Of a DNA stretch of 64,000 nucleotides, positions 6,495 through 42,367 are shown one piece after another. Each line of letters starts with the position of its first letter. Positions within the stretch are counted from its first letter, which is position 1. The DNA comes from a virus. Lineage: Duplodnaviria; Caudoviricetes. The position numbers were made by a program, and so were the translations under genes. Where the stretch lies: positions 64,001 to 128,000 of the IMG/VR virus record IMGVR_UViG_3300010346_000241, one strand, 5' to 3'. The notes beneath the pieces are model-generated. The model was not told the DNA's origin, made no database searches, and saw nothing but the letters and a program-made list of their open reading frames with translations.

Positions 6495-6506
6495 AACATT
6501 TCTATA
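6495..6506 (+). promoter_or_regulatory. Late promoter AACA-N6-TA
   Basis: AACA-tttcta-TA upstream of the RBS of 6533; matches the AR9 late promoter consensus. Confidence 0.75.
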
Positions 6507-39493: not shown

Positions 39494-41119
39494 TTACGAT
39501 TTGTTTATGAGACGTCTGTCGATAACGAACAGCTCCCCACATATTTTGCATCTGCACTTTATTACAGTGCCGTTATCGTATTCGATGTTCATATCATTAG
39601 CAGTATCGAAGTGTACTATTTTCTTCACGTCATTCCTCCATTCACTTGTAATCTTGGTTATAGCCTTATTCATTCCACTTGAGTCAAAAGTCTCAATGCT
39701 TATTTTAGGAATGCCATTCTTGTAGATATATGAGACTAATGCGTTATGAGCACAGCGATAGCAGTCTTCTTTATCACTCTCCGGGATTGATGATTGCTCT
39801 TTAGAAGCATACAAAGCTTCAAGCTTATCCAATCTATTCTTAAGTTCAGCATTCTCTCCAGCTAAAGAAGCTACAGTAGTCTCTAACTGATTGAATCTCG
39901 TATTAAGATACGGTGGATACGGTGGTTGTATAACTGGATTATTCAGTGTCGGATATGATGGTGCTGTACAGAAAGGAATATTGTATGGCATCGGATTAGT
40001 AGGTGCAGGAGTTCCCAGTTTTGTAAAGAGATCATTTATACTACACTGAGTTAACTCCACTGCAACTCTGGATATTTCAGTGCTATATCTAATCATAGCT
40101 TCATCAATTCTAGCGTGCTGATAGATGGAATAGATATAGTCTACAATGCAGTCTGGATAGAACCAAAGATGCTCAAGCTGATCTCCCATGAAGCTGTTAT
40201 AGATTGCTATACCATAGCTCATAAGAGCATGGACATAGGATAATATATTCATAGAAGCTATCTTTATAACCTCCTCCTCGAAAAGAATGCCTATGCTGCT
40301 GTCTTCTATAAGAGGATCGTTAATAAACTGATTGATCATACAAAGCGCTCTTAATGTAGTAGTATCACTATCGAATATAGAATCATCATCTACTTCGTCC
40401 CATTCTAACACTGTTTTACCCATCGATGTTGCTGTGGATGAAGTAAAGTTCATAAGCCAATCTGGAATAGTTCTTTCAGCGATCTTCAGACTAGTATCAT
40501 AGTCTTTCTCAAGTACACTATAGACATACGATACTACAAACTTTACTAAGTCTCTAGGGTCATATTCCTTTATACCGTTTTTGAATGATCTTGTGTTTTC
40601 AAGATCTTCACGCATCATTGCCATGTGGTTTATTGCTGGTAGAGTTCTAAACTCATCCGATGTAATGAATCTCCTATCGAAGTCTTTATGATCATTATAG
40701 TATGCAATCTTGTCAAACTGTTTATGATATAAAGAATCATAGGATGTCTTATATATCTCATCGTCTTGTAAGCTGTTCACAAACCAATCTAACAGATAGA
40801 TTAGTCTTGCTGTTGCTTTCATGTTCTGGCTTTCGAAATAACTGTTTGACATAAACTCTCTAAAGAGATCTAATGTGAAACGGTCATATAAGAAACCGTG
40901 TATACCAAGATCATTTGTGTTGAGAGAAGCAAGTTTGTTTATCTCATCTACTCCTTCTGAAGTGGTATAGATTTTAGAGTTCGCTTCTTTAGTAGTACCG
41001 ATTCTAGTGCTTCTTAGTACTCTCTTCTGTTTAATCACAAAAGAGTCTTCATCTGCAATAAAACTTTCAAGTGATTTAATCCAAGGTTTCTCATTCATAA
41101 TGATTTCTACATTGTTCAT
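39494..41119 (-). CDS. Hypothetical protein (541 aa) with Pro-rich linker, coiled coil and C-terminal Cys motifs
   Basis: AAGGAGG RBS; CYRC..CKIC; candidate early motif at 41204-41211. Confidence 0.75.
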   Translation of the reverse strand: MNNVEIIMNEKPWIKSLESFIADEDSFVIKQKRVLRSTRIGTTKEANSKIYTTSEGVDEINKLASLNTNDLGIHGFLYDRFTLDLFREFMSNSYFESQNMKATARLIYLLDWFVNSLQDDEIYKTSYDSLYHKQFDKIAYYNDHKDFDRRFITSDEFRTLPAINHMAMMREDLENTRSFKNGIKEYDPRDLVKFVVSYVYSVLEKDYDTSLKIAERTIPDWLMNFTSSTATSMGKTVLEWDEVDDDSIFDSDTTTLRALCMINQFINDPLIEDSSIGILFEEEVIKIASMNILSYVHALMSYGIAIYNSFMGDQLEHLWFYPDCIVDYIYSIYQHARIDEAMIRYSTEISRVAVELTQCSINDLFTKLGTPAPTNPMPYNIPFCTAPSYPTLNNPVIQPPYPPYLNTRFNQLETTVASLAGENAELKNRLDKLEALYASKEQSSIPESDKEDCYRCAHNALVSYIYKNGIPKISIETFDSSGMNKAITKITSEWRNDVKKIVHFDTANDMNIEYDNGTVIKCRCKICGELFVIDRRLINKS

Positions 41120-41343
41120 ATAGATTCCTCCTTTTGAATCTAGGTTTTGTTGTTTACATGTGTATGAATACCAGTAGTCTGACCATTCTACTGATACATC
41201 TATATAGTATATAACACACTCTTATATTGAGTAGACCTTAACAGGTTGGGAGGTTAGAGATTAAAGAACCAGGTTGAAGGTAAGATATAACTACACTACA
41301 GTCAGTCTTTTGTAGTAAAATATTACAGGGGGAACACCTAAAT

Positions 41344-41608
41344 AAACATCTGATGGTGATACCGACGCGGGACGAACGGAGCAACGAAAGGGAGGGCTCA
41401 GGTGGAAACAAGCCAGTCGCGAGGGCGCGACTGGTTCCAGGAAGGACAACCAGGAAGGACTCTTAGGAGAGAGCAACCAGGAAGAACTAGACAAGGGTAC
41501 AGACGAGAAGAGTCAAAGAAGAGAGAAGCAAGAGTCCAACAACGCGCAGAACGCGATATATAATAGAGAGGAGAGAGGAGAATATCGTTTCGTTTTCATT
41601 TCGGATGT
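41344..41608 (+). ncRNA. Candidate GGA-rich structured non-coding RNA (alternatively an origin-like element)
   Basis: AACA-cctaaa-TA at 41333-41344; complementary 5'/3' ends ACATCTGA/TCGGATGT; GC hairpin 41411-41436; three CCAGGAAG repeats; 13 GGA motifs. Confidence 0.4.
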
Positions 41609-41649
41609 CTAAGATCAACCAAATCTAGCGAAAAGAGGTATATTACATC

Positions 41650-42066
41650 ATGATCAATCACAAGACACCTAAGAATGTACGTTATGGAGAGCCCTATTAT
41701 ACTAAGAGAGACAACTTTGGTAATAAGTTGAGCTATGTAGTATATGAGAGAGGTAAGAATAACAAGGCAGTTCCTATAGAGTATAAGTACGAATACGATT
41801 CCGATGGTCATAAGATTGCTTACTATAGATCTGATGGAGTCTTCAACTTATATGAATATGATAAGTATGGAGACTTGATATATGAAGTTGAGGGTAGTGT
41901 ATATACAGGTATCACTACAGAGCACTGGTATAGTGGAAAGAGAGAAATATTCAGAAGAAGAGTGGATGCTGAGACTATGCTAGTCCGCGAACATCGCAAT
42001 GGTGTACAGACTACTGAGTACTACAATCCCTTTGTGAGAATGTATAATAATCCACTCTGTCGTTAA
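41650..42066 (+). CDS. Small YD/RHS-like repeat protein (138 aa)
   Basis: YEYDSDGHKIAY and YEYDKYGDLIYE repeats; GAGGT RBS; TATATTAC at 41639-41646. Confidence 0.6.
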   Translation: MINHKTPKNVRYGEPYYTKRDNFGNKLSYVVYERGKNNKAVPIEYKYEYDSDGHKIAYYRSDGVFNLYEYDKYGDLIYEVEGSVYTGITTEHWYSGKREIFRRRVDAETMLVREHRNGVQTTEYYNPFVRMYNNPLCR

Positions 42067-42196
42067 CTATATAGTATGGAGTGAATCCACTTCATCATAC
42101 TCGATGTATATCATAATGATTCTCCTTGTTCATATATGATAACCGAACCTCCCCTAGGGTGTGGGACCCTAGGGGAAACTTAGTGTTTATAGAGAT

Positions 42197-42217: not shown

Positions 42218-42292
42218 TAGGGTATAGCAAAGAGGAAATGCATCGGGCTTTGACCCCGTAATTCGTGGGTTCGATCCCCACTACCCTAACCA
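42218..42292 (+). tRNA. tRNA-Gln (anticodon TTG)
   Basis: Acceptor stem TAGGGTA/TACCCTA with U1-A72; anticodon arm CGGG-ctTTGac-CCCG; T arm GTGGG-TTCGATC-CCCAC; encoded CCA. Confidence 0.92.
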
Positions 42293-42328
42293 AACGTTAC
42301 TGTTATATGTGATATACCTTCTAAAACG

Positions 42329-42359
42329 AATGTGGAGTACCGTAATGGTACTCCACATT
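42329..42359. terminator. Bidirectional terminator hairpin
   Basis: AATGTGGAGTACC/GGTACTCCACATT 13-bp stem between the tRNA and the convergent RNAP gene. Confidence 0.75.
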
Positions 42360-42367
42360 TGTCGTGT

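Follow-up and report, generated by a model that had tools for sequence, protein, structure and literature searches.

STAB-SD, a strong Shine-Dalgarno (SD) sequence without a start codon, stabilises cryIIIA transcripts (Agaisse & Lereclus 1996), and the mRNA of phage SP82 carries a polypurine stabiliser that resembles a ribosome-binding site (RBS) (Hue, Cohen & Bechhofer 1995), both as summarised in PMC3997798 and PMC7509114. The principle of stabilisation by an SD without a start codon is already known in Bacillota. The element described here is a conserved, purine-rich domain of 265 nucleotides (nt) at positions 41344-41608 on the plus strand of a 64,000-nt stretch of DNA, referred to as the window, which comprises bases 64,001-128,000 of the 229,448-bp IMG/VR virus record IMGVR_UViG_3300010346_000241 of an uncultured giant phage. 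The domain is tentatively read as part of a cis-acting leader that would bind ribosomes in a way akin to STAB-SD or the polypurine stabilisers. As in those systems, a long 5' leader contains SD-like purine tracts that no start codon follows, ribosome sites of the AAGGAGG type are strongly used, one of the precedents is phage-borne, and by analogy the expected action would be binding of ribosomes or 30S subunits that blocks decay. Unlike the known stabilisers, which are single short sites near the functional 5' end, the element is a large conserved domain with helices, a closing stem and a clamped loop made of purines only.

The second point of reference is phage AR9. Its late promoters follow the consensus AACA-(6N)-TA/G, in which the last base is the start site, its early promoters follow the A+T-rich consensus AAATATATATTAT-(6N)-G, and its 5' untranslated regions (UTRs) span 26-491 nt, which led the authors to propose that long leaders control translation (PMC5312081). 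The phage studied here codes for split multisubunit RNA polymerase (RNAP) subunits, and its closest cultured relatives by RNAP beta (about 31% identity) are the AR9/PBS1-type jumbo phages of Staphylococcus, Listeria and Bacillus, whose hosts are Bacillota. The two share the same promoter grammar, with a late AACA-N6-TA/G motif, an A+T-rich early motif and some units that have both. They differ in that there is no sequence similarity to any cultured phage, in the low identity of RNAP beta, and in that a purine-rich structured leader is not described in PMC5312081.

Conservation of the intergenic region

The element is situated in a 530-nt intergenic gap (41120-41649) between divergent genes, a 541-amino-acid (aa) gene of no assigned function on the minus strand (39494-41119) and a 138-aa gene (ORF138) on the plus strand. 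Relatives of the 541-aa protein were found in public assemblies at 93% down to 46% identity, and their contigs together with pattern searches yielded 13 further loci. The order of 138-aa gene, gap (523-555 nt) and 541-aa gene is kept in all loci, with one extra open reading frame (ORF) in between in the most distant one, L013. Conservation in related phages, which the first-pass annotation of the window had named as a check on its proposal of a late-promoter-driven, non-coding plus-strand RNA, was observed in all 14 homologous loci examined and supports that part of the proposal.

In the alignment from the predicted +1 to the start codon of the 138-aa gene the mean column identity is 88%. Identity of the RNA to the window is 82-93% versus 56-84% at the 4-fold degenerate sites of the adjacent 138-aa gene in five of six comparisons, an example being 82% versus 56-59%, and in L013 it is 64% versus 62% at synonymous sites, which is no excess. 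The element contains no conserved reading frame: stop-free stretches switch frame, 1-nt and 2-nt indels occur frequently and start codons are not retained. Pfam gave no match for the ORFs of 37 aa and 53 aa. Since no frame is kept and the sequence changes more slowly than 4-fold sites, the stretch 41344-41608 is judged from these alignments to be non-coding and under purifying selection.

It could be argued that the RNA has no function of its own, the gap being composed of promoters and a hairpin that terminates minus-strand transcription, and that its conservation results from the recent recombinational spread of a module containing the gap and ORF138. In L009, L011 and L014 the gap and ORF138 are uniformly closer to the window (86-93% nt identity) than the adjacent 541-aa gene (only 64-74%), a pattern that suggests mosaic recombination with a breakpoint near 41120. 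The missing excess in L013 would also fit, as would an 11-bp hairpin in the element that scores as a terminator on the minus strand. This explanation is nevertheless improbable, as the comparisons with 4-fold sites clearly show the RNA to be the more conserved, the extreme purine content is kept where sequence and length differ, and both the compensatory changes and the outlying leader length described below speak against it.

The reach of the family was explored by several searches. A degenerate hairpin pattern gave 85 matches in IMG/VR of which only L036 is real, and the exact hairpin pattern gave none. A pattern made of the promoter and its upstream sequence gave 5 loci in metagenome contigs (2 by chance) and L036 only in IMG/VR, while all 12 matches of a 5'-end pattern aimed at distant homologues were due to chance. 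Protein-guided scans of IMG/VR and GTDB genomes with the 541-aa and 138-aa families gave no new loci, and blastn against GenBank phages gave no match and no similarity to any cultured phage.

Promoters and leader length

Three features upstream of the domain bear on its expression:

41333-41344, plus strand: late promoter of AR9 type, AACA-N6-TA (AACACCTAAATA), predicted +1 at A41344
41199-41215, plus strand: candidate early promoter of the virion RNAP type (TCTATATAGTATATAAC), pointing toward the element
41312-41326, plus strand: inverted repeat GTAGTA-AAA-TATTAC, 15 nt, unique in the genome, directly abutting the late promoter

Taken alone, the short late motif is hardly enriched in the window (103 versus 87 ± 9). 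Where a late site immediately precedes an SD-led gene the consensus is longer, AACAT(C/T)T-N-(A/T)(A/G)TAA, and the pattern AACA[TC][CTA][TAC]N[AT][AG]TA[AT] occurs at 33 sites in the genome versus about 8 expected by chance, the latter being a rough hand estimate rather than a tool result. About 28 of these 33 sites precede an SD-led ORF by 19-37 nt. The first-pass annotation had placed AACA-cctaaa-TA at 41333-41344 within a gap of about 530 nt between divergent genes, and both are present in the window. This site is one of the 33, yet it is located 306 nt ahead of the next real gene, which makes its leader an outlier in a genome where late leaders measure about 25 nt. It is kept in all 14 homologous loci and, judged by its motif, is a credible late promoter. 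Further late promoters with the extended consensus are found at window positions 6495, 16035, 16574, 47694 and 52134, and late promoters often have a T-rich tract (TTTTTTGT) 3-6 nt upstream.

Sites of the family TATA[AG]TATATAA[CT] number about 14 in the genome and are mostly located upstream of ORFs, usually preceded by (C)TC; in window numbering they include 32087, 41203, 65830, 77453, 97755 and 100027. By analogy with AR9 these A+T-rich sites are probably the early promoters of this phage, recognised by its virion RNAP. The TCTATATAGTATATAAC site is unchanged in 12 of 13 homologues and reads TAATAATATATAGC in L013. If 41199-41215 is an early promoter, the unit would be expressed throughout infection, like the AR9 genes that have both promoter types. 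The inverted repeat next to the late promoter is unchanged in all 14 loci, L013 included, save L005 and L006 where the first arm is GTAATA and the repeat thereby perfect; it may serve as an operator, or form a hairpin in the early transcript.

Composition of the domain

The purine-skewed and GC-richer tract that the first-pass annotation had described is confirmed by genome-wide comparison. The 250 nt from 41332 are 71.6% purine (z = 4.2), which is the highest value of any 250-nt window of the genome on either strand, and the G+C content of the tract is 51% versus 41% for the genome. Purines amount to about 68% of the domain 41344-41608, because of which most of it is expected to be unpaired, single-stranded and A/G-rich, with SD-like sequences.

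The domain also contains 13 GGA triplets, and from these the first-pass annotation had proposed a sponge of the CsrB/RsmZ kind, which would titrate host CsrA via repeated GGA. There is a likeness to CsrB, RsmY and RsmZ, which are also non-coding, a few hundred bases long and equipped with several GGA-bearing purine motifs, some of them in predicted loops: the window has three CCAGGAAG repeats and one AGGA in a possible loop, and the homologues hold 8-16 GGA. However, the count is not above that of shuffled sequences (9.9 ± 2.4, p = 0.14, for mononucleotide shuffles; 11.2 ± 2.1, p = 0.27, for dinucleotide shuffles), an outcome that the annotation had itself named beforehand as speaking against its proposal. 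In dinucleotide shuffles AGGA and CAGGA reach p = 0.10 and p = 0.06, and GGAG is not enriched (5 versus 4.4). GGA is not well conserved either, as only 2 GGA columns are invariant among the 14 homologues and L013 lacks GGA in all three repeats, whereas the AGGA loop occurs in few homologues and its stem can slip register. The element has no plus-strand terminator and abuts an RBS-led gene instead of forming a stand-alone gene, no CsrB/Rsm family of Rfam matches it even at E up to 10, and the phage codes for no CsrA (PF02599). A CsrA sponge is hence very improbable, and the many GGA of a purine-rich tract are removed as a false lead.

RNA structure

Structures were predicted on the plus strand from the consensus fold of the homologues and from individual minimum free energy (MFE) folds (n = 14). 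The main elements are the following:

41346-41353, plus strand: 5' strand of the terminal stem P1, ACAUCUGA (ACATCTGA), pairing with 41601-41608
41379-41399, plus strand: hairpin GAGC/GCUC of the consensus fold with a 13-nt loop that holds the SD-like GAAAGGGAGG (41383-41395)
41411-41436, plus strand: 11-bp G+C-rich hairpin with loop AGGG
41437, 41450 and 41477 (span 41437-41484), plus strand: three CCAGGAAG repeats, exact in the window
41458-41464 with 41530-41536, plus strand: long-range helix GACUCUU/AAGAGUC, 7 bp, in the consensus fold, clamping a 65-nt purine loop (41465-41529)
41460-41473, plus strand: hairpin CTCTT-AGGA-GAGAG with its AGGA loop at 41465-41468, in few homologues
41543-41555, plus strand: small hairpin CGCG-CAGAA-CGCG
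41584-41608, plus strand: U-rich tract and 3' strand of P1, UCGGAUGU (TCGGATGT) at 41601-41608

The complementary ends noted by the first-pass annotation form P1, a stem of 8 pairs with one U-G that is present in the consensus fold and in 12 of the 14 individual MFE folds. A terminal stem of at least 8 pairs is moderately unusual by chance (p = 0.013). P1 is nearly invariant, hence uninformative for covariation, with single mismatches in L013 and L014. Long pyrimidine-rich sequence occurs in the domain only in the U-rich tract that contains the 3' strand of P1; weak pairing of this tract with a polypurine tract, through many G-U pairs, is predicted, and no intrinsic terminator is formed at 41584-41608.

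The 11-bp hairpin and the three repeats were likewise found where the annotation had placed them. All 14 homologues are predicted to form the hairpin, two pairs of which show compensatory A-U/G-C changes, one in four sequences including the window and the other in L013; on the minus strand it is terminator-like. An 8-mer in three copies is moderately unusual by chance (p = 0.028), and the core common to the repeats of the homologues is CCRRGAAG, not GGA. The variant CCGAGAAG is found in copy 2 of L009, L011 and L101 and in copies 1 and 3 of L013, where CCGAGAAAG, CCAAGACG and CCGAGAAG stand in place of the three CCAGGAAG repeats of the window. In the small CGCG hairpin, which is present in the MFE folds of 12 of the 14, the stem is invariant and the loop varies.

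The long-range helix shows one compensatory change from U-A to C-G in four sequences, and two of its pairs become U-G, which is tolerated only on the plus strand. The loop that it clamps varies in sequence and in length (54-65 nt) but is 77-87% purine in all 14 homologues, so that composition rather than sequence appears to be under selection. The choice between this helix and a local hairpin is ambiguous, as CUCUU can pair about equally well with GAGAG in several registers. The AGGA-presenting hairpin of the annotation exists as a sequence at 41460-41473, whereas its loop is not conserved.

Fold energies relative to shuffles have z = -3.6 on the plus strand and -2.4 on the minus strand, and those of the homologues are about -3 to -4 on both strands and do not separate the two. 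In the three best helices taken together there are 27 G-U cells and 6 A-C cells, a count that is biased toward the plus strand on which the fold was predicted. Taken as it is, the pattern of substitutions favours selection of the structure as plus-strand RNA rather than as DNA or minus-strand RNA. No gathering-score match to Rfam was obtained in the window, and at E up to 10 the region 41100-41700 gave only a chance match to leuA-Halobacteria. No described RNA family fits this architecture, in which an AR9-type late promoter is followed by a 265-nt domain that P1 closes and that contains a clamped loop of purines only; the arrangement is new.

The first-pass annotation had raised the alternative of a replication origin, which could be iteron-based or, with more plausibility, rely on priming by an R-loop in which the purine-rich transcript hybridises to its pyrimidine-rich template and primes DNA synthesis. 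ColE1 RNA II and T4 oriF/oriG are R-loop primers of this sort, structured transcripts driven by a promoter over an intergenic region. The locus shares these properties, and a stable RNA:DNA hybrid would be favoured by the purine richness of its RNA. The 250 nt with the strongest purine skew in the genome, which follow immediately after one or two promoters in the gap between divergent genes, have the appearance expected of such an origin; the central part conserves purine content rather than sequence, and three short direct repeats are present. The cumulative GC/AT skew, in contrast, has its extrema near genome positions 28, 88 and 226 kb and none at 105.3 kb, a weak test in this phage, whose skew follows for the most part the direction of its genes. 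An A+T-rich unwinding element is missing from the tract, whose G+C content exceeds that of the genome, the repeats are only three, 8 nt long and with a core that varies among homologues, and, unlike in ColE1 and T4, a late-type promoter would drive a transcript that runs on into a protein gene and a tRNA gene. As the U-G-type substitutions in the helices also indicate selection on an RNA fold, there is little probability that the element is an origin.

Shine-Dalgarno-like sites

Windows of 9 nt were scored against an anti-SD tail of the Bacillota type, which was assumed from the ribosome sites of the phage itself (consensus AAGGAGG) and not taken from a known host. Two features at the 3' end of the leader matter here, in addition to the loop site at 41383-41395:

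41562-41583, plus strand: near-invariant polypurine tract AAUAGAGAGGAGAGAGGAGAAU with the strongest SD-like site, scored over 41563-41585
41609-41649, plus strand: conserved linker with the real RBS AAAGAGGU of the 138-aa gene

Nine sites of the domain score -6 kcal/mol or stronger, versus 2.0 ± 1.5 per 265-nt window of the genome, which places the domain in the top 0.2%, and the homologous elements carry 6-13 such sites. The polypurine tract reaches -12.8 kcal/mol in the window and is kept at -10.1 to -12.8 kcal/mol in all 14 homologues, and the loop site GAAAGGGAGG reaches -11.8 kcal/mol and is kept at -9.4 to -14.7 kcal/mol in 11 of the 14. In strength both compare with genuine ribosome sites. 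The two are located at different distances from the predicted +1, 40-57 nt for the first strong site and about 220 nt for the strongest. There is no start codon behind the polypurine tract and no conserved one behind GAAAGGGAGG, as the GTG at 41402 is missing from L008, L012 and L013. The 138-aa gene's own site scores -8.4 kcal/mol, which is weaker than the two strong sites of its leader and than the genome median of about -11. The idea of an SD decoy, put forward by the first-pass annotation next to the CsrA sponge, fares better than the latter owing to the density of sites and the retention of two strong ones in nearly all homologues, with the reservation that the excess is largely compositional.

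A possible stabilising leader

The downstream part of the presumed transcription unit comprises three features:

41650-42066, plus strand: 138-aa gene (ORF138), adjoining the element in all loci
42218-42292, plus strand: tRNA-Gln(UUG), found by ARAGORN and Rfam, last gene of the presumed unit
42326-42362, plus strand: terminator-like hairpin of 17 bp, ending the presumed unit

It is proposed that a plus-strand transcript starts at about 41344, and probably a second one at the early-type promoter 41199-41215, and runs through the 138-aa gene and the tRNA-Gln gene to the terminator at 42326-42362, with 41344-41608 as its conserved non-coding 5' domain. The hairpin at 42326-42362 is the first terminator-like site on the plus strand after 41344, none being found in between. 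The SD-like sites of the domain would bind 30S subunits or ribosomes without starting translation, and the bound ribosomes would shield the ORF138-tRNA-Gln message from 5'-to-3' and endonucleolytic decay, and might perhaps be held on standby for the weak true RBS downstream. Transcription from 41344, read-through into ORF138 and ribosome binding are the steps that are inferred in this model, whereas conservation, non-coding status, composition, helices, density of SD-like sites and linkage are established here. The linkage in cis is strict: the element, ORF138 and tRNA-Gln are found together in all loci (the tRNA gene in 8 of the 8 homologous loci that reach far enough), also in a relative that has no 541-aa gene.

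Contigs from RNA libraries cover parts of this area, although they show neither ends nor strand nor level and may include DNA carry-over. X3, an activated-sludge run, has contigs spanning 41378-41609 at depth 17.3 and 41580-42148 at depth 9.4, and X10, from another study, has one spanning 41390-41891, both without cover just upstream. Cover in X1 is even over the whole area, and in X5 it is restricted to the flanks and leaves the element uncovered.

Several observations weigh against a stabilising leader. Nucleotide conservation is stricter than a mere stabiliser ought to require, and a closing stem such as P1 would be expected rather in an aptamer domain or in a stable RNA that stands alone. 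From the 5' end to the strongest SD-like tract the distance is about 220 nt, whereas the known 5' stabilisers act close to that end. The purine-rich composition largely accounts for the excess of SD-like sites, given that GGAG is not above dinucleotide shuffles, and composition instead of a motif may be the target of selection. The anti-SD used is an assumption, the predicted +1 and the transcript ends were derived from motifs and not from mapped ends, and covariation is thin, with 3 pairs and few independent events among sequences that are too alike.

A released RNA that acts in trans would account at least equally well for the closing stem and the strict conservation. Such an RNA would be a decoy or sponge, the P1-closed domain being set free by processing or by partial termination near 41609 to titrate a factor that binds purine RNA, for which free 30S subunits (via the anti-SD), Hfq-like or other A/G-binding proteins and C-rich regulatory small RNAs of the host are candidates. 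P1 joins both ends of the domain in most of the predicted folds, the clamped loop stays purine-rich while its sequence drifts, the CCRRGAAG motif is present in three copies, and the element as a whole is strongly conserved, all of which would be expected of a sponge. The 3' end of the domain, on the other hand, has neither a terminator nor a recognisable processing site, its linkage in cis to ORF138 and tRNA-Gln is constant, and the phage genome contains no complementary target, the best being 14 nt (E = 0.18) in the variable loop. A sponge is on balance unlikely. An antisense regulator of phage genes was rejected on the same search for complementary targets.

A comparable case of non-coding RNA near tRNA genes is known from Staphylococcus phage vB_SauM-515A1, a Kayvirus, in which lncRNA1 and lncRNA2 are highly transcribed, about 0.5 kb long, of unknown function and located by tRNA genes, lncRNA2 with its own promoter ahead of them (PMC7698491). 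The present element resembles these RNAs in being a non-coding region near a tRNA gene in a large phage of the Bacillota type. It has no detectable sequence similarity to them, belongs to another phage family with another RNAP system, and is separated from the tRNA gene by a protein gene.

Neighbouring genes

The predicted structure of ORF138 is a run of ten beta-strands that forms a YD/RHS-repeat-like beta-sheet (predicted local distance difference test, pLDDT, 91), and its best Foldseek matches are RHS/YD-repeat shells, although weak (E about 3e-3). No Pfam, PHROG or NCBIfam family matched it. The C-terminal third is nearly invariant and includes TGITTEHWY, FRRRVDAETM, VREHRN and EYYNPF. ORF138 was also considered as an RNA-binding autoregulator, to which the beta-sheet model lends no support.

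On the other side of the gap, an inverted repeat CAGTAG-N10-CTACTG (41163-41184) is flanked by the early-type promoter on the plus strand and the promoter region of the 541-aa gene on the minus strand. Its arms are kept at 5-6 bp in relatives, and it could be an operator or an insulating hairpin. The late-promoter-like site of the 541-aa gene (41141-41154, minus strand) has the canonical AACA-N6-TA spacing in relatives (AACAAACACCTA) and a spacing of N5 or N8 in the window, from an indel in a T/G-rich run. One RNA-library contig from wastewater joins 39397 straight to 41085, and so represents a close relative without the entire 541-aa gene yet with the gap, the RNA element and the 138-aa gene. 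The 541-aa-family gene of the most distant relatives is immediately preceded by an extra ORF (L013:1137-1445, 102 aa; L105:2-409, at least 135 aa), and the divergent arrangement of genes is therefore not universal.

Implications for AR9-like phages

This clade of phages keeps, under purifying selection, a 306-nt leader that holds the most purine-rich piece of the genome, where jumbo phages with their own RNAP normally have leaders of about 25 nt. Were the domain to be released after all, a purine sponge cut or terminated from the leader and acting late, perhaps early too, would reprogramme host translation, which is an unlikely scenario. Its working part would be the helix-clamped loop, constrained in composition and free in sequence. 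The same genome has a second RNA in which a conserved stem clamps an exchangeable loop, and this could be a general design of the phage group. If the element is instead a stabilising leader, the Gram-positive principle of an SD without a start codon would extend to a large, structured and phage-specific RNA domain, and would provide a handle on post-transcriptional control in AR9-like phages, in which only promoters have been studied so far.

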